DNA of 54,039 bases from Thermodesulfobacteriota bacterium (GCA_041572575.1 JBFFSH010000005.1:1-54039), one strand, 5' to 3'. Shown: positions 30,998 to 38,798, counted from the first letter of the stretch. Notes: generated by a model not told the origin, from the sequence alone. Program-made: numbers and translations.

Positions 30998-31462
30998 TTA
31001 ATCTTCATGCTCATTATCTTTGGAATTATCATTAGAGATATGTGGTTTTGCCCAATTGTAAAGTACTTTTTTATCGTCTGCTGATAGCTTTGCTTCAGGA
31101 TGAAGAATAATGTAGCTCCAAAGCGGCATCTCGCCCTCATCTACTTCTTCCCAAATCTCTTCTATGATTTCCGATTTTTTCTCAGCAGAGTATTTATCCC
31201 ATGTTGAAAAGTTATATTCATCTCTACCTTCGTTTATATGATTTATAACAAACCATGACGATGGGGCTACTTTGCTGTACCAGGGCCATTTGGTTTCGTT
31301 TGAATGACAGTCGTAGCATGCTCTTTTGAATATATTTTTTACATCTGCGGGTGCTTGAATGTCAGATGTTACGGGTGGATTTGTTCTGGCTACAGGTATG
31401 AATTGAATAGCTATTAATACTATAAATAGAATTAAACCTATATATCCAAGATATTTTTTCAT
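30998..31462 (-). CDS. Haem-binding domain (Haem_bd-type) monoheme cytochrome c
   Basis: N-terminal TM, ACYDCHSNET.WPWY, EMPL..Y..LH. Confidence 0.88.
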   Translation of the reverse strand: MKKYLGYIGLILFIVLIAIQFIPVARTNPPVTSDIQAPADVKNIFKRACYDCHSNETKWPWYSKVAPSSWFVINHINEGRDEYNFSTWDKYSAEKKSEIIEEIWEEVDEGEMPLWSYIILHPEAKLSADDKKVLYNWAKPHISNDNSKDNEHED

Positions 31463-31484
31463 TTTTATTACATCTATATTCTAA

Positions 31485-32042
31485 TTAAATTTTCTTTGGA
31501 AGCTTCCATGCAATCACTATAAATACTATAGCTAAAACCAGAGCAACCACAACACCGGGAAGATCTGTTAAAAGTGCCGGGAAAGATTCGTTCCCAGTAA
31601 GAGCCAGGCTCACTTTACCACCGGCAATTTTATTAAATAGTACCGAGCCTTTAATACTTCCAAAAACAAGCATATAAACCAATGCACCCAAAAGGCCCCC
31701 TATTATAAATGAAACAGCATCTTTCCTGCCGTCCCCAAGAGCGGCAACACCGGTGCCCGGGCAGTAACCTGCCGTGGCAAAACCAAGTCCTAAAATAGCG
31801 CCGCCAACAATTACACCTATATAGCTTTCCTTTATAGAAAAATGTCCGACATCAATAATACCAACAGCAGTTCCAATAAAAAGCACGGCACTGCTTATGC
31901 CCACTGCAAACATGATGGCTTTCATAAGGTGTAGGTCCGTAAGTCTCAGCATGTTTATAATATTCTCAGGATTTGAAGCACCCACTCTGTGAAGTGCAAA
32001 TCCAAAAAGTGTTCCAAAAGCTATTGCAAGAATGATTTCCAT
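31485..32042 (-). CDS. YeeE/YedE-family sulfur-compound transporter, half 2
   Basis: FGTLFGFAL, GG.ILGLGFATAGYCPGT. Confidence 0.88.
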   Translation of the reverse strand: MEIILAIAFGTLFGFALHRVGASNPENIINMLRLTDLHLMKAIMFAVGISSAVLFIGTAVGIIDVGHFSIKESYIGVIVGGAILGLGFATAGYCPGTGVAALGDGRKDAVSFIIGGLLGALVYMLVFGSIKGSVLFNKIAGGKVSLALTGNESFPALLTDLPGVVVALVLAIVFIVIAWKLPKKI

Positions 32043-32054
32043 TGTTAATACCCC

Positions 32055-32624
32055 TTATGATTTTCTTCCATATATTAAGATTGCTGCTGGAATAGCAGCT
32101 GCAAATGCAGCAACTGTAAAAAGGTAACCGCTAAGTGCTGTCTGCATCATGCCGCTCATCATGTGGCCGCTTGTACAACCGCCTGCAAGCCTTGCACCGA
32201 ATAAAACAAGAAATCCTCCTGCAAAGGCAATAACATAACGTGCAGTGGGATTGTCCGGGAATATGGTTCTAAAGACCTTTGGAGCGGTTTTGTCTTCATT
32301 GCTCGGTCTTGGACCTTTTAGCATCTTGGATAGAAAAGCGCCCAGTATTATTGCAAACACGAATATGAGACTGTAATTAAGAGGGTTTGCAACGTTCTTT
32401 GCGTACTTCCCTCCACTCTTGTTTAAATACGCATTTTTGCTGGAGTAACCTGTTTTGGCCTCGGGATCTTTTATAATAAGATCGTCTGAAAAAAGGCTTA
32501 ATATGATCCCATCAGCTATTACAAACTGAGTAGAAACACCGATTGGCTTAACTACCCAATCTGCAAGAGTAAAAACAATAGCAAGTAATATTCCTCCTGT
32601 AAACCAGTTAAGCTGTCCTTGCAT
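32055..32624 (-). CDS. YeeE/YedE-family sulfur-compound transporter, half 1; start likely 32624
   Basis: PIGVST, GGFLVLFGARLAGGCTSGH; GGAGG RBS before ATG 32624. Confidence 0.88.
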   Translation of the reverse strand: MQGQLNWFTGGILLAIVFTLADWVVKPIGVSTQFVIADGIILSLFSDDLIIKDPEAKTGYSSKNAYLNKSGGKYAKNVANPLNYSLIFVFAIILGAFLSKMLKGPRPSNEDKTAPKVFRTIFPDNPTARYVIAFAGGFLVLFGARLAGGCTSGHMMSGMMQTALSGYLFTVAAFAAAIPAAILIYGRKS

Positions 32625-32674
32625 TATAAACCTCCAGCATTTTATATTTTGCAATCTTTTTACAGCACTATAAG

Positions 32675-32905: not shown

Positions 32906-34006
32906 TTAGCCTTGTATGTTTAAACCCAGACCGTACGAATTGGGTTCTAAATAATCTGAGATTTGAAGAATGCCGCCTGCTCCAAATTTAATCGAAGGAG
33001 TGCATAAATCCCTTTCTAATAAGAATTCACCAAATGCTCCTTCCTGAGCTATTACATTATTGGAATATGTGCTTGCAACAGGTAATGCAGCTCGTGTCAG
33101 AATACTTGTTTCTCCTACCTGAGCGCCCAAAATAATTCCAAAACCTTTCGCGGCAGCTATTTTAGCAATACCAAGCGAGCGTAGAATTCCACCCATTTTT
33201 GATATACGTATATTTATAATGAATACATCTGTTCTGTTCTCTAATTTGTCGAAATCCCCAATTTTTTTAAAAGACTCATCCAGAATGATCTTTGCTCCCA
33301 GTTTCTTAGATAATTCCATCAAATCGGTATAAGAAAATTTCTCTAAAGGTTCTTCCACTCCAAAAAACTGACAATCCAGGCTACTAAGATAAGATAATGC
33401 TTTTTCAGAACTTTCCCAAAGTTTATTGGCATCCACTCTTAATGTAATATCTGTTCTCTTAGACTGCCTTATCACATTAATTTTTAATGAATCCTGATTC
33501 AGGTCTCCTGATAGCTTTAACTTAAAATCTTTAAAACCCATAGATAAGAATTTTTCAAAGAAAGTTTTAGTTGTATTTATATCCCAATCGCCGATTACTG
33601 CCGTATATCTAAATTCGTTTCTAAGTTCTGAAAGACCTAGCAAATCTTCTACAGACTGTTCTTCTTCTTTTCCAAGTAGATCCAGAAGTGCAATTTCCAC
33701 AGCACACCATGCCGCGGGATTTGAGTTAATTGCTTTTTTGTATCTGTCCATAAAGGATTGTAAATCCTGTAGAGTGCTGATTTCTGAAATCTGCTTTCTA
33801 TGTTCACCGATAAAGTTTAATGAAGTATCTGTGGATTCGTTTGTCACATAGGTTCGAGGACATCCTTCTCCATATCCAACATTTTTATTAGATGATGTTG
33901 CCGTTACCAATATAGTCTCTGTTTTTGTCCTATCGGCCAGGGCGTGTTTGAAATTAAACTTAAATGGAATTTCGAGCTTTTTTGCAAGAAGGTGTGTAAG
34001 CTTCAT
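32906..34006 (-). CDS. Enolase-superfamily enzyme, muconate-lactonizing subgroup
   Basis: GYGEG.P, EIALLDLLGK, FKLK, RVDAN, VEEP, LDES, NIRISKMGG, GETS. Confidence 0.85.
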   Translation of the reverse strand: MKLTHLLAKKLEIPFKFNFKHALADRTKTETILVTATSSNKNVGYGEGCPRTYVTNESTDTSLNFIGEHRKQISEISTLQDLQSFMDRYKKAINSNPAAWCAVEIALLDLLGKEEEQSVEDLLGLSELRNEFRYTAVIGDWDINTTKTFFEKFLSMGFKDFKLKLSGDLNQDSLKINVIRQSKRTDITLRVDANKLWESSEKALSYLSSLDCQFFGVEEPLEKFSYTDLMELSKKLGAKIILDESFKKIGDFDKLENRTDVFIINIRISKMGGILRSLGIAKIAAAKGFGIILGAQVGETSILTRAALPVASTYSNNVIAQEGAFGEFLLERDLCTPSIKFGAGGILQISDYLEPNSYGLGLNIQG

Positions 34007-35652
34007 TTTATTATATGATTGCTAAAATTAAAACTGCACTCCTTTTTATACATAAGATGAGTAAATTTAAATTGTGAGTCTCTTTGGCCGTTTTGTATGC
34101 AGTAGTTTTTATAGTTCTCACTGGTTCCGTTTTTAATATAATTTAATTTAATAGCCTTTAATCTACCGCTATCTCTCTTGGCTTTATACTCCAAATTTAT
34201 CATTTTTAGTGCTTCATCGATAATTGGGGATAAATCTGCCACGGGAATTTTTTCAGATTCTACAAACAGCTCATAAGATAGGTCTATAGGGTTTGCCAGC
34301 AATGTAAAGAAGTTAAACTCAATACAGGCTTTATCTTTTACATTACAAAGAGCCTTTATTACCTGTTCTTCATAGAGTTTCTCCCCTGTGATGTTTGTAA
34401 CTCCTCTTCCTTTTTGGGCAAACTTGATCGTGGGCGTGTTGTTGAATTTCCCGGTAACTTCTACTATGTCGTTTATGAAATATCTATAAAGCCCATGGGC
34501 TGTGGTGACAATAATGTAGTACTGTTTGCCGATTTCGATTTCAGAAATGGTTCTATATTCATTCTTTCCAAGATCCCAGTCGTCTCTTTCAATGAACTCA
34601 TAAAAATTCTCATCGATTATTGGTATGCCGGAGTCGCTGTTTGCATCAATAACTACAGATCCCCTAAATTCACTACAAAGATATCCTAACTCAAATATCT
34701 TTGTATTATTTGGCAGTATTTTCCTTAGCTTAGGAATTAGCAGTGAGCAATTCCCCTGAGTCCAGGTTAATACTGCTTTTAAATCCGGCCATATATCTTT
34801 GAGGTATATTGAATTGTTGCTTCTTATGATATTTCTCAGTTCATCTGCTCTTGTTTTGTTTTGATTTAGGTGATTGCTGAGTATATGATTTGCCTGTTTT
34901 GATATATTTATATTTGAATTAATTTTTCCACTTTCAATGATATCTGTTATTTCATTAAACCTTTTGTTAATGATCTCTAAAATCTTGAGTATTGTCGAAG
35001 GATTGGCGGCTGCAAGAGTGCTAATGTTTTTTTGAGCAACGCTTAGAACAGATATTAAAAAATATTTCTCATCATAGTTCTCTAAATCAAAGATTTCATA
35101 AGGAAGTACATATTTTGATCTTATAATTCTTGGAATGTTTTTATAAAGAAGACCGGACAGCGATCCGTAGGGGATATCATTTTCTAATTTACCCTCAGTC
35201 GCCGGGCTTACTATTGCAAGAATTTTCCCGGAAAACATCGAAGGTTCTTCCCTGTATTGAGAATAATTTGAAATACACTGTGTCATTTTGTAGTTTTTTA
35301 CAGTTTTTTCCAATATGGGTATGAGTTTTGGCTTGTCTGTCGTACCACTTGTCTGTGCATACATAATGGGGGAGGACTCAGTTAAGTATGGCTCCCTGGC
35401 TTGGATTTGTTTTTCAATATATTCTCTTAGCATTTCGTAGGTATGAACCGGCACTGATCTTTTAAAATCTTCATAATTGTTTATAGCAGAAAATCCGTAT
35501 TTCTTGCCAAAGACCGTATTACTATTTTTCTCTAAAAGAGATCTTAGAGCCGCATTTTGCTCAGTCTGCGGGTCGGAGGTTTTCTTTATAAAAGGTCTCC
35601 ATACAAAGAGCCTAATGATGAAGAAATATAGTTTGATTAATGTGTTAATCAT
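34003..35652 (-). CDS. GH3-family acyl-acid amido synthetase-like protein
   Basis: QTSGTT.KPKLIP, GYLCSE, FYEFI, GLYRYFINDIV, GEKLYE. Confidence 0.88.
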   Translation of the reverse strand: MINTLIKLYFFIIRLFVWRPFIKKTSDPQTEQNAALRSLLEKNSNTVFGKKYGFSAINNYEDFKRSVPVHTYEMLREYIEKQIQAREPYLTESSPIMYAQTSGTTDKPKLIPILEKTVKNYKMTQCISNYSQYREEPSMFSGKILAIVSPATEGKLENDIPYGSLSGLLYKNIPRIIRSKYVLPYEIFDLENYDEKYFLISVLSVAQKNISTLAAANPSTILKILEIINKRFNEITDIIESGKINSNINISKQANHILSNHLNQNKTRADELRNIIRSNNSIYLKDIWPDLKAVLTWTQGNCSLLIPKLRKILPNNTKIFELGYLCSEFRGSVVIDANSDSGIPIIDENFYEFIERDDWDLGKNEYRTISEIEIGKQYYIIVTTAHGLYRYFINDIVEVTGKFNNTPTIKFAQKGRGVTNITGEKLYEEQVIKALCNVKDKACIEFNFFTLLANPIDLSYELFVESEKIPVADLSPIIDEALKMINLEYKAKRDSGRLKAIKLNYIKNGTSENYKNYCIQNGQRDSQFKFTHLMYKKECSFNFSNHIIK

Positions 35653-35659
35653 TTTCGCC

Positions 35660-36526
35660 TCATTTTTTAGTAAATGGCGCTTTTATCTGGTTTATAAAAT
35701 CGGTTGGGAAGTTTTTATCTTGCAGTCCCAATTCAGATACTTCTTTGTCTTTTGGCAAAAACCATGTACCGAAGAGCAGGTCCCATATTATCAGGTTGTT
35801 GCCGTAGTTTTGGTTTGATTCTCTTATTACTACAGAGTGGTGCCAGCGGTGAAGCTCCGGGCCGCTTACGATGTAATTTAGAAATCCCAGCCGCAGTTCA
35901 ATATTGGAATGCTGAAAGAAGCCGTTTACTGCGTAAAAAATGAAGTAGAGTGAAACAACTTGCTCACCCACACCTAAGATAATAAAGGGCAGGGCATCGA
36001 GAAGAAACTGAAGCATTTTTTCAATTGGATGGAAACGGGCAACGTTTATCCAGTACAGTTTGGATGGTGAGTGGTGAACAGAATGGAGTTTCCATAGAAG
36101 GTCCCATCTGTGGCTTGCAATATGAAGCCAGTACCTAAGAAAGTCAGCTCCGAGTAGCATAATTGCAGCCTGGACGAAAATAGGCAGGTGGTCTGGCCAA
36201 AGCTCCAGTATCTGCAAGTTGGTCGACTGTAAATATGCAATAAGTGTTATAGCAAAGAAGAAAGAAAGAAACTTTGGAAGTAATACCTGCACAAGTCCCA
36301 TGTATAGAAGGTCATTCTTTATGTCTTTTGAACTTGCATTCCAGCTATCCCTATGCGGGATAAAAAATTCAAGGCCACACATAATAAGTGCGGCAATTAT
36401 GACCGGCGTGTATGTTGAGATGAAAATACTTAACCCAAGCCCTATAAAAACTATATGTATTACAAATGATATCACTATTACAGCTGGATAAGCTATGCAA
36501 GAGGTTAAATTCTTTAATCTAGGCAT
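35660..36526 (-). CDS. Sterol desaturase / fatty-acid hydroxylase family di-iron membrane enzyme
   Basis: His boxes YWLHIASH, LHSVHHS, RFHP, QHSN, HRWHH; NYG..WDLLFGT. Confidence 0.9.
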   Translation of the reverse strand: MPRLKNLTSCIAYPAVIVISFVIHIVFIGLGLSIFISTYTPVIIAALIMCGLEFFIPHRDSWNASSKDIKNDLLYMGLVQVLLPKFLSFFFAITLIAYLQSTNLQILELWPDHLPIFVQAAIMLLGADFLRYWLHIASHRWDLLWKLHSVHHSPSKLYWINVARFHPIEKMLQFLLDALPFIILGVGEQVVSLYFIFYAVNGFFQHSNIELRLGFLNYIVSGPELHRWHHSVVIRESNQNYGNNLIIWDLLFGTWFLPKDKEVSELGLQDKNFPTDFINQIKAPFTKK

Positions 36527-36977
36527 TATTTAATCCACCTCCTTTGTTTAATAAATGAAAATATCCAAACAATACTAAGAAGCATGCGAGCACCAGGTGA
36601 AAAAATGATGGGATAGGATATGCAAACCATTTTACATCTTGTAGTAGAGTTAATCCCGCAATAAGTCTAAAGAACATAATAGCAAAATAAAGAGTGCCGA
36701 GAGTAATGAATATATATCCAGTTTTTATACTTAGAACAATTTTGTCTAAAGCAATTTTGTAAATAGTTTTAGATAGAACAAAGATTGTTAATATCTGAGC
36801 TGTAAATAGAAATTTGTAAGATAGTATACCGCTGTCCCAGGATTCAAACGGAGGCAGAAATGTAAGATCTAAGAAATATTGCAGTAGTTGTGCGACAACT
36901 CTGAATATAAAGAGTCCTAGAAGTAAGATAAAGCAGAGGATTAATTTCTTTGTTTTCTTTGTCTTAATATTCAACAT
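36519..36977 (-). CDS. Four-TM membrane protein of unknown function
   Basis: Four hydrophobic segments; overlaps the desaturase start; GAGG RBS. Confidence 0.7.
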   Translation of the reverse strand: MLNIKTKKTKKLILCFILLLGLFIFRVVAQLLQYFLDLTFLPPFESWDSGILSYKFLFTAQILTIFVLSKTIYKIALDKIVLSIKTGYIFITLGTLYFAIMFFRLIAGLTLLQDVKWFAYPIPSFFHLVLACFLVLFGYFHLLNKGGGLNNA

Positions 36978-37017
36978 AACGCATTCCTCAAAAATGTCCT
37001 TTCATTACTATCGTTTG

Positions 37018-37069
37018 TATGTGAATGAACATTTATTCACATATTATAATAAAATAATTGCTGTGTCAA
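37018..37069 (-). promoter_or_regulatory. Sigma70 promoter overlapped by a palindromic operator, probably TetR-bound
   Basis: Minus strand TTGACA(37064-69)-17nt-TAATAT(37041-46); inverted repeat TATGTGAAT-gaacattt-ATTCACATA at 37018-37043. Confidence 0.72.
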
Positions 37070-37242
37070 GAGATTTTATAGGCCAGGTTTTATAGTTGCT
37101 GTATAGTTGGCTGTGCTTGATTTGAATTAAGATGGTTAGTATATGGTTGTTTTGTTTATTTGGAATAATTGAGATGAATCATTTGAGTAATTTATAAATA
37201 ATTATGTATTCACTTATTTTTCTATTATATTTACTCTAAAAC

Positions 37243-37824
37243 TTGGGAGTAAATAAGATTCCAAAACAAACTACTAAATTAGAGCCGATAGAAAACACTG
37301 CTATAAAGCTTTTTGCAAAGAAGGGGATAAAGGAAGTAACAATAAAAGACATCGCCTCTGAGGCTGGCTGCTCGGATGGTGCGCTTTACCGCCATTATAA
37401 GAGCAAAGAAGAGATGGCGTGGACTCTGTATAAAAGAGAAGTAGAAGGTTTTGGGGAGCGTATAAAAGAGATGTTGGGTGATAAAGCGCTTCCGAATGAG
37501 AAGAAAATATACAATGCTGTTGAACTGTTTTATGATTTTTATGATAAAAACCCGACTAAATTCAGCTTTATTCTGCTATCTCAATATAACTTCCCCCGGC
37601 AGTTGAAGCTTAATAAAAAACTAAACCCGTATTATATTATGCAGGAATGTTTACAAGGCATGACGAAAGGAAAGAAGATTAAAGATTTAGACCTCCTAAG
37701 CGGTATGATTTTTGGTCTTATTCTAGAACCTGCCAGAATGAAAGCTACAAATGAGCTTAAGGGTAAATTGAAAGACAGAACCGGAACAGTTTATAAGGCG
37801 TGTATGAGTATTATTAATATATAA
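37243..37824 (+). CDS. TetR/AcrR-family regulator
   Basis: AIKLFAKKG..TIKDIASEAGCSDGALYRHYKSKEE HTH. Confidence 0.93.
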   Translation: MGVNKIPKQTTKLEPIENTAIKLFAKKGIKEVTIKDIASEAGCSDGALYRHYKSKEEMAWTLYKREVEGFGERIKEMLGDKALPNEKKIYNAVELFYDFYDKNPTKFSFILLSQYNFPRQLKLNKKLNPYYIMQECLQGMTKGKKIKDLDLLSGMIFGLILEPARMKATNELKGKLKDRTGTVYKACMSIINI

Positions 37825-37838
37825 TCGTATATATATAC

Positions 37839-38798
37839 TTAGAAAACAATTTCAAACCTCTCCTCGGGGCCTATATGATCGAAAGCCGGGGCTTTGTATT
37901 TTTCCCACTCTCTGCACCAATTGTAATATATATCTTCTCCTATAAGTCTTGAGATGATAAACTCTGTTATCAGTAGTGTTGATTCGATTATAAATGAAAG
38001 GTTATTTCGTAATTCTTGTGACTGGAATTCATTTTGCGGGCCAATGGCTAGGATGCTTGATTGCTCGTAATTGGTTTTTCTCTTCAGCCTGAATAAATAA
38101 CTCATAAGAGTAGTAGGGCGAACTCTCGTAATAGTCTGCATTTTCTGTTCATCGGTAAGTTTTACGGTGGAAGTATCTTTTTTCTTTGCGAGTCTGTCTC
38201 TCCTTTTTGCAAGAGCTTCTGAAATATATTCTTCTCTGGTTGTTCTAAGCGCTTTACAAAAAAGGCTTAGTGCAGATTCATCCTCAACCTTTTTCCATGA
38301 ATGAATATGGTCATCCGGATATATTCCGGGAGCTAGGTTGTGAAACCCATTTTCATCGAAACTGATACACCAGGGGGTAATTAGCCAGGATATTTCTGAC
38401 CACATGACATAAAATATTTTCTGAACCTGGGCATGGGTTCGGGGTTTTGGATAACCCTCGGTGATTGCTAGTGCCTGAGTGGAATAATACAGCGCGTAAT
38501 ATGTTTGTACTATACACCAATTGTTAGAGAGCCTGATGAGGTCATCTTCTTTTATAAAAAGATTACCCATTTTGTATAGGGCCTCCACTCCCCAGGCATT
38601 GTTAAGAGAGTGGTGAATATCATTAGTATTAAACTCTGTCTTTTTTTCTAGTTTTAGACAGCCTGATTCAAATACCTTTTCAGCCAGCAGTTCTAAAGAT
38701 TTTTGATTATTATCTTCTATGCCGCCAGATGCGATATATCTTATAGCGTTTAAATAATTTGAGTGAGTCCTGAAAACCTGCCGTGAGTTTTGTGGCAT
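37839..38798 (-). CDS. Hypothetical protein with HEPN-like motifs
   Basis: 319-aa ORF; WCIVQTYYALYY..AL, RTH, YLFRLKRKTNY. Confidence 0.55.
   Translation of the reverse strand: MPQNSRQVFRTHSNYLNAIRYIASGGIEDNNQKSLELLAEKVFESGCLKLEKKTEFNTNDIHHSLNNAWGVEALYKMGNLFIKEDDLIRLSNNWCIVQTYYALYYSTQALAITEGYPKPRTHAQVQKIFYVMWSEISWLITPWCISFDENGFHNLAPGIYPDDHIHSWKKVEDESALSLFCKALRTTREEYISEALAKRRDRLAKKKDTSTVKLTDEQKMQTITRVRPTTLMSYLFRLKRKTNYEQSSILAIGPQNEFQSQELRNNLSFIIESTLLITEFIISRLIGEDIYYNWCREWEKYKAPAFDHIGPEERFEIVF

Follow-up and report, generated by a model that had tools for sequence, protein, structure and literature searches.

The window analysed here, a 54,039-nucleotide stretch of DNA from a Thermodesulfobacteriota bacterium (GCA_041572575.1 JBFFSH010000005.1:1-54039), contains between positions 32,906 and 37,824 four coupled genes on the minus strand. 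They encode, in order, a protein with four transmembrane helices (4-TM), a membrane di-iron hydroxylase, a ligase of the GH3 family and an enolase-fold enzyme, while a TetR-family regulator gene lies divergently on the plus strand. The list of open reading frames (ORFs) in the window and the searches described below give the following features:

36519..36977, minus strand: 4-helix membrane protein of an unnamed family, gene 1 of the operon (152-aa ORF; AlphaFold2 model)
35660..36526, minus strand: OlsE-like membrane di-iron His-box hydroxylase (288 aa; PF04116)
34003..35652, minus strand: GH3-family ATP-dependent acyl-acid amido synthetase (549 aa; GH3 N, M and C domains)
32906..34006, minus strand: enolase-fold enzyme with Arg at position 267 (366 aa; MR_MLE_N and MR_MLE_C)
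37243..37824, plus strand: TetR-family repressor, nearest to Bacillus FadR (193 aa; TetR_N)
37018..37043, no strand: candidate TetR operator, TATGTGAATGAA-ca-TTTATTCACATA (palindrome; arms identical in the window and in the related loci L085 and L087)
37041..37069, minus strand: candidate operon promoter, TTGACA, 17 nt, TAATAT (10 of 12 matches; conserved position)
37188..37215, no strand: another conserved block of the spacer, close to the TetR start, with a GTGAAT half-site (invariant columns 46-73 of the spacer alignment)

According to the ORF coordinates, successive genes of the operon first overlap by 8 bp, are then 7 bp apart and finally overlap by 4 bp, and a spacer of 265 bp separates the operon from the TetR gene. 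The first-pass annotation of this DNA had described four coupled genes, a divergent TetR gene and a palindrome at the promoter; the ORFs are exactly as described there, and the Pfam and repeat searches agree. No terminator-like site was found after the enolase-fold gene, all five sites detected (3.1 expected) being intragenic.

The four genes are maintained together far beyond this genome. At E<=1e-10 a protein search with the GH3 sequence retrieved 2,648 relatives. Those nearest to it are 70-77% identical (one of them from Candidatus Dadabacteria), and below these, sequences of many phyla form a wide band of 45-50% identity. The genomic context was surveyed by tblastn with the window proteins in the best 80 of 486 GH3 genome loci, representing about 14 phylum-level groups by our own count from record titles. 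The hydroxylase gene is located directly upstream of the GH3 gene on the same strand in all 74 loci where 700 bp or more were available, and the enolase-fold gene directly downstream in 74 of the 75 loci with room, the exception (L064) carrying it upstream. The 4-TM gene was found in 61 of 73 loci with room, in 54 of them adjacent, and the TetR gene in none of the 80. Around more distant GH3 genes (24-34% identity, 30 loci) no cassette partner was found in any locus; the partner genes are thus kept with related GH3 genes and not with more distant ones. The co-occurrence of the three enzyme families across phyla, which the first-pass annotation had proposed to check, is therefore borne out in nearly all surveyed loci, and its view of the four genes as one unit is upheld by the synteny and by natural gene fusions.

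Such fusions link all four proteins, and each is collinear with the gene order. The hydroxylase is fused to GH3 in 5 of 120 listed proteins and the two form a single ORF in 18 of 79 loci, while the 4-TM protein is fused to the hydroxylase in 8 of 60 loci and in P0241. All three are joined in L063 and in the fragment P0242. At the other end of the operon, GH3 is fused to the enolase-fold enzyme in P0121 and P0125, and hydroxylase, GH3 and enolase-fold enzyme make up one polypeptide in P0122, P0123, P0132 and P0140.

By record title, the carriers include Nitrospirota, Nitrospinaceae, Nitrosomonas, Poribacteria, Acidobacteria and Gemmatimonadetes, and those that can be cultured are Sulfurirhabdus autotrophica, Kiloniella and Nitrosomonas. 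Within the phylum of the window only 3 of 120 genomes contain the GH3 gene. This sporadic occurrence suggested rampant horizontal transfer, but the grouping of the GH3 tree by phylum tempers that view. The tree, built with FastTree from 56 of 81 rows covering 9 phylum groups, requires 8 phylum changes, which is as few as 9 groups allow, and inter-phylum transfers were therefore few. Two local departures from the usual layout were seen in the survey. In a metagenome-assembled genome of Kiloniella an ISL3 transposase gene (L015:9858-11090, minus strand) lies between the GH3 and enolase-fold genes, and may disrupt the cassette, and an IS200-like gene follows the Peptidase_S15 (S15) hydrolase gene of that locus. 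In two Poribacteria loci (L005:4321-5142 and L009:5672-6502) a second FA_hydroxylase paralog lies between the enolase-fold and S15 hydrolase genes.

The GH3 protein matches the Pfam families PF03321, PF23571 and PF23572 with 212, 71 and 50 bits (gathering cut-off 23.6), and plant GH3 structures align with it at E values of 1e-26 to 6e-16. Its nucleotide-binding motifs, TSGTTDKPK (residues 101-109), GYLCSE (323-328) and GLYRYFIND (387-395), match those defined for plant GH3 enzymes and OlsH in the available text of PMC12493201. Across 13 sequences there is no variation at T101, S102, G103, T104, K109, G323, Y324, S327, E328, R390, Y391 and D395. The sole NCBIfam match is OlsH (NF052613), with 103.8 bits, below the equivalog cut-off of 620. 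OlsH makes N-acyl ornithine from a free fatty acid and ATP (in extracts, the fatty acid had to be added) and was characterised in 2025, as the available text reports (PMC12493201), which dates the earlier remark that bacterial GH3 enzymes are mostly uncharacterised. In the genome of the window the GH3 gene is single-copy, and no OlsB-type domain (PF13444) was found in this 96%-complete assembly. Bacterial GH3 enzymes are numerous, and to our knowledge OlsH alone has a known product. The first 26 residues of the window protein (35575-35652) form a hydrophobic stretch, LIKLYFFIIRLFVW, in which W18 is nearly invariant; P28, just beyond it, is invariant (13 sequences). A membrane-associating helix is one possibility for this stretch, whose counterpart in the fused forms is the linker region.

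The hydroxylase belongs to PF04116 (102 bits, gathering cut-off 31). It aligns over its full length with OlsE (NF052566; profile positions 2-286 of 293) at 182.2 bits, which is below the equivalog cut-off of 475. For each of 38 hydroxylase orthologs, OlsE is the one NCBIfam family matched (best E value 1.3e-62). The box pattern HxxxH, HxxHH, HxxHH is present: H135/H139, H148/H151/H152 and H226/H229/H230, together with H166 and H206, are found in 43 of 43 orthologs. OlsE itself hydroxylates C4 of the ornithine head group, according to the part of the review PMC12971839 that was available.

The enolase-fold protein contains the domains MR_MLE_N (30 bits) and MR_MLE_C (92 bits), and its AlphaFold2 model has a mean predicted local distance difference test score (pLDDT) of 96.0. 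All 66 orthologs have K162, K164, D192, E218 and D243, which provide the KxK and D/E/D elements of the muconate-lactonising-enzyme (MLE) subgroup; by our own count from the alignment K162, E218 and D243 correspond to K162, E219 and D244 of 1jpm. K270, E299 and E322 are also invariant. According to the available portion of bioRxiv 10.1101/2022.03.03.481873, membership of the MLE subgroup depends on catalytic lysines in both strand 2 and strand 6. In the enzyme studied here the second of these is replaced: R267 aligns with the strand-6 catalytic Lys of five solved relatives (by the same count K268 of 1jpm, and the Lys of the NIK/NLK motif in 3jva, 2p88, 3r0k and 3q45), and the position is Arg in 65 of 66 orthologs. 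The full Arg-type signature occurs in 127 of the 150 best representative clusters. Of the equivalogs for N-succinylamino-acid racemase and o-succinylbenzoate synthase (NSAR/OSBS, menC), TIGR01928 requires 200.65 bits and is matched with 103.9; all NCBIfam equivalog cut-offs are missed.

Because Arg replaces the strand-6 catalytic Lys, a classical two-base epimerase is unlikely, and the epimerisation step assumed in the first-pass annotation becomes doubtful. In dipeptide epimerases an Asp321/Asp323 pair holds the substrate by its alpha-ammonium group (bioRxiv 10.1101/2022.05.01.490185, available part); the D-x-D is missing here, and an invariant Q-E-G-A-F-G stands in its place, in a stretch aligned with low confidence. 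A sister clade of 114 proteins (within P0124-P0240), each with an alpha/beta hydrolase fused C-terminally to the enolase domain, shows the two positive residues swapped, with Lys at 267 in 114 of 114, and at 270 Arg in 102 and Lys in 12. For this fused clade the genomic context was sought in two groups, Burkholderiales, where 6 of 151 genomes matched, and Thermodesulfobacteriota, where 1 of 119 did; all that was obtained was the unfused cassette type.

A variant of the cassette was found in 12 soil-metagenome contigs (L089-L100), which have the order enolase, GH3, 4-TM and no FA_hydroxylase. They represent one lineage, their GH3 proteins being 75-89% identical to that of L099. The variant enolase domain is the C-terminal half of a protein of 625-691 aa and retains KVK, NIR-x-SK, GAQVGET and EGSFG, that is, the Arg type. 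The N-terminal half consists of an 'iron-containing redox enzyme' domain (PF14518), which has the haem-oxygenase-like di-iron oxidase fold and forms the oxidase half of the variant cassette. This domain was detected in none of the 80 main loci and is not in the window, and an exhaustive search for full-length PF14518::enolase fusions elsewhere gave only two more 50%-identity clusters (P0244 and P0245). Because the variant lineage swaps the FA_hydroxylase for the PF14518 oxidase, the fold of the oxidase is apparently interchangeable, and an oxidase of some fold appears to be needed by the cassette. The variant 4-TM protein is 30% identical to that of the window; it is kept with GH3 and the enolase-fold enzyme, and is therefore not tied to one particular oxidase.

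The variant loci also have neighbours of their own. In L099:649-9669, for instance, a 1,132-aa MFS-PlsC-AMP-binding fusion of the lysolipid re-acylation type is encoded upstream, while a radical-SAM/BATS gene and a DUF3617 gene lie on the downstream side. The MFS-PlsC-AMP-binding fusion and the radical-SAM/BATS gene are missing, or all but missing, from the 80 main loci.

The 4-TM protein matches no Pfam or NCBIfam family, and in the Atlas it falls among hypothetical-protein clusters only. Its AlphaFold2 model consists of four long helices with a pLDDT of 91.9. No fold relative was found, the best hits being at E 2.3 in Foldseek against the PDB and at Z 7.7 in the wide VIA-align search, which is noise for helical bundles. 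Residues F23, R26, Q30, P42, Y54, Q61, Y97, R104, H127 and L130 are invariant (38 and 46 orthologs). A role as a bis-His di-haem cytochrome feeding electrons to the hydroxylase was considered and rejected, as only H127 is invariant and a second His is not conserved. The electron-donor role also fails on the persistence of the protein with GH3 and the enolase-fold enzyme where the membrane hydroxylase is absent.

An alpha/beta hydrolase of the CocE/NonD (Peptidase_S15) type abuts the cassette in 14 loci and is fused behind the 4-TM protein in L028, L050 and L051, and Hydrolase_4::enolase fusions of the Arg type also exist. By analogy, this recurrent hydrolase would be a fifth part of the system, parallel to OlsI.

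Putative TetR regulation of the operon is a feature of the lineage of the window. The arms of the palindrome (37018-37029 and 37032-37043, 12 nt each) are 92% complementary, and the 26-mer is unique in the window and was matched in none of 100 shuffles. It abuts the -10 box of the TTGACA-17 nt-TAATAT promoter (minus strand, 37069-37041). Promoter-like sites in the region are at chance level (19 found, 21.8 expected), and the promoter call therefore rests on conservation and position. In both close relatives, L085 and L087 (GH3 72% identical), the divergent TetR gene is kept, with 79% and 85% identity of its product, and L087 preserves the whole neighbourhood. In the spacer alignment the arms TATGTGAAT...ATTCACATA and the upstream TTGACA are identical in the window, L085 and L087, whereas the remainder diverges and the L085 spacer has an insertion of about 250 nt. 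The conserved block at 37188-37215 may be a site of TetR autoregulation.

The regulator itself scores 53.2 bits with TetR_N (gathering cut-off 24) and 59.2 bits with the Bacillus-type FadR equivalog (NF053878), whose cut-off is 200. Its best solved relatives, across the DNA-binding as well as the ligand-binding domain, are the Bacillus FadR entries 3whb and 1vi0 (E 6e-13, residues 12-184). Bacillus FadR responds to long-chain acyl-CoA. The start codon (TTG at 37243) is uncertain, since the equivalent codon in L087 is no start. In seven loci of other lineages an XRE-type regulator occupies the equivalent position. TetR is thus a lineage-specific add-on, and the label 'TetR-controlled' given to the operon earlier is appropriate for the window lineage but not for the cassette elsewhere.

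The reading that we put forward, and for which we see the case as evenly balanced, is that the four genes constitute one membrane-associated module for the synthesis and subsequent editing of an N-acyl amino acid (lipoamino acid). The firmer part of this proposal, synthesis at the membrane of a modified N-acyl amino acid, is rather probable. The gene set, its conservation and fusions, the active-site residues and the operator footprint are observations, whereas every chemical step in what follows is our inference. The GH3 enzyme would consume ATP to adenylate a free fatty acid (or some other lipophilic carboxylic acid) and acylate the alpha-amino group of an amino acid, as OlsH does with ornithine. 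The membrane-embedded, OlsE-like di-iron hydroxylase would then oxidise the conjugate with O2. The enolase-fold enzyme would hold the free alpha-carboxylate via Mg2+ (D192, E218 and D243), a strand-2 lysine (K162 or K164) taking the alpha-proton and R267 stabilising the enediolate. Since the strand-6 lysine is missing, one-base chemistry is expected, and a non-racemase reaction of this kind comes close to being an even call. The most economical such step would be elimination of the hydroxyl installed by the oxidase, yielding a dehydro-amino-acid (enamide) head group; this specific sequence of hydroxylation followed by dehydration is doubtful, though it is the one we favour. The 4-helix protein would act as the membrane partner of the enzymes, either as an anchor or in lipid hand-over, and the FadR-like TetR, in this lineage, would repress at the palindrome abutting the -10 box and probably be released by an acyl ligand. 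A bolder form of the proposal is a two-enzyme relay leading to an unseen lipid class with a desaturated or cyclised head group, in which a novel Arg-type enolase branch would take the alpha-proton and expel or capture the oxygen function installed by the oxidase, while the orphan 4-helix protein, as an unprecedented type of membrane subunit, would present the lipid to the soluble enzymes; this we regard as speculative and unlikely.

The N-acyl-amide-lipid character that the first-pass annotation had assigned to the pathway fits these results, OlsH being the sole match of the GH3 protein and OlsE the only real match of the hydroxylase. No described pathway with this gene set was found in the literature covered, which did not extend to supplements, in keeping with the earlier statement. 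The order proposed there, oxidation, amidation and then epimerisation, finds no evidence in the present analysis.

Several points weigh against the making-and-editing module. No cassette member has a known product, substrate or activity. The two lipid-enzyme matches reach 104 of the 620 and 182 of the 475 bits that the equivalog models require, far short of the mark, and any or all of amino acid, acyl group and hydroxylation site may thus be other than in ornithine lipids. The C4 targeted by OlsE is not beta to the carboxylate, and the same regiochemistry here would block hydroxylation-dehydration. The full-length fold matches of the enolase model, N-succinyl-Arg/Lys racemase, chloromuconate cycloisomerase and dipeptide epimerases, are ties at Z 41.3-40.0, and the fold search thus does not tell these three activities apart. 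Given the invariance of K270 and the residue swap in the sister clade, K270 might be a displaced second base, rescuing epimerisation. The variant architecture, on which the argument for an exchangeable oxidase is built, is a single lineage in the sample. Finally, the cassette of the window has no alpha/beta hydrolase, and one S15 hydrolase query found none in its own genome (2.6 Mb, 96% complete), OlsI itself not being among the genome queries.

The alternative that survives best keeps the same pathway but makes the enolase-fold enzyme an N-acyl-amino-acid epimerase, with K270 or E322 as the second base and an N-acyl-D-amino acid lipid as the product. The nearest solved sequences are indeed dipeptide epimerases and N-succinyl-Arg/Lys racemase (3jva, 7e-28; 2p88, 5e-25), and the same two groups top the fold search (Z 41.3 and 40.3), all acting on the alpha-carbon of an N-acylated amino acid; the K/R swap of the sister clade suggests, moreover, that both positive residues matter. 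However, the strand-6 Lys that is a base in every characterised MLE-subgroup racemase is Arg in nearly all orthologs, and the +3 Lys of the B. subtilis dipeptide epimerase, K271, is a second-shell residue without substrate contact in the available portion of bioRxiv 10.1101/2022.03.03.481873. We therefore consider epimerisation unlikely, though it is the most serious competitor of one-base chemistry.

Plant GH3 enzymes conjugate auxin, jasmonate and benzoates, and the MLE subgroup includes muconate cycloisomerases and OSBS, which are tied in the fold search. The substrate could accordingly be a small aromatic or alicyclic acid and the product a soluble signal or siderophore-like conjugate. This is improbable, as two of the four proteins are integral to the membrane and the soluble enzymes are often fused to the membrane ones. 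The TetR is nearest to the acyl-CoA-responsive FadR of Bacillus, and the MFS-PlsC-acyl-activating fusion next to the variant cassette is typical of lysolipid re-acylation.

Still less probable is that the operon is simply a GH3-dependent ornithine-lipid pathway, with OlsH and OlsE orthologs making a hydroxylated (lyso-)ornithine lipid and the enolase-fold and 4-TM proteins as accessories. OlsH and OlsE are the only NCBIfam matches, and the lack of PF13444 leaves GH3 as the only N-acylating enzyme found in the genome, but the scores are a fraction of those required, and no OlsI-like gene is present in the cassette. The ornithine-lipid pathways covered contain no enolase-fold enzyme, and the words 'racemase' and 'enolase' do not occur in the available part of a 2026 review (PMC12971839), whereas in the cassette the enolase-fold enzyme is conserved as tightly as the other two enzymes. 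Least probable of all is a salvage or detoxification module re-conjugating or degrading free fatty acids or N-acyl amino acids, to which the FadR-like repressor and the CocE/NonD-type hydrolases of 14 loci would be suited, but GH3 is an ATP-consuming ligase and no beta-oxidation or amidase genes were found in the cassette across the 80 loci.

Public sequence reads cover the locus. In two RNA-Seq runs of one study 8.9 kb were covered evenly, including intergenic DNA, and one contig spans the divergent promoter, while cover by two runs of a second study is patchy, with contigs of 150-300 nt in the enolase, GH3 and hydroxylase genes, the spacer and the TetR gene. Since DNA carry-over is possible, this cover is no proof of transcription. 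All sampled words of 32906-37824 occur in DNA sequencing runs belonging to eight studies with the labels soil, estuary, sediment and marine, an unusually wide occurrence for near-identical DNA.

The same strand continues downstream of the operon (30998-32654) with a sulphur transporter of the YeeE/YedE type that is split into two proteins of 199 and 185 aa, each covering half of PF04143, and with a Haem_bd protein (PF14376). In L087 the two transporter genes still follow the cassette, with 83% and 88% identity. On the other side, a 319-aa ORF (37839-38798, minus strand) convergent with the TetR gene has no Pfam or NCBIfam match and is 80% identical in L087; its Atlas neighbours are hypothetical-protein clusters only, with weak HEPN-like structural rows (TM-score 0.36).

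The cassette represents a second GH3 system, widespread across phyla. Its product, if found, would be a new class of lipid or surfactant and a possible source of unassigned aminolipids in environmental lipidomes. It would, in addition, bring to the enolase superfamily a new type of reaction that is marked by a readily recognised feature of the sequence, the replacement of the strand-6 Lys by Arg. The module is self-contained and only 4.1 kb long, and is therefore directly testable by heterologous expression.

Among known systems the closest is OlsH/OlsI/OlsG of Singulisphaera acidiphila, described in the available text of PMC12493201, together with OlsE. As in OlsH/OlsI (OlsG), a GH3-family enzyme would join free fatty acid and amino acid into a lipoamino acid by an amide bond, with use of ATP; both systems have the three nucleotide motifs, and some cassette loci and fusions also include an alpha/beta hydrolase as a partner. 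Unlike the OlsHGI operon, which in the same available text (PMC12493201) has none of them, the cassette partners are a di-iron hydroxylase, an Arg-type enolase and a 4-helix protein. The hydroxylase resembles OlsE of Rhizobium tropici, which acts on the amino-acid part of an N-acyl lipid, over its full length and in all His boxes, but it is below the equivalog score and is often fused to GH3. The enolase-fold enzyme shares the full-length fold of the dipeptide epimerases and N-succinyl-amino-acid racemases (3jva, 1jpm/1tkk, 2p88 and 1sja; Z 38-41) and keeps KxK, D/E/D and the +3 Lys, while the strand-6 Lys is Arg and Q-E-G-A-F-G replaces the Asp321/Asp323 pair. As with FadR (YsiA) of Bacillus subtilis, a divergent TetR-family repressor is associated with a palindromic operator at the promoter, although the window TetR reaches 59 of 200 bits and is confined to one lineage. 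The haem-oxygenase-like di-iron oxidases (PF14518), lastly, take the place of the membrane hydroxylase in the variant cassette, where they are fused to the Arg-type enolase.

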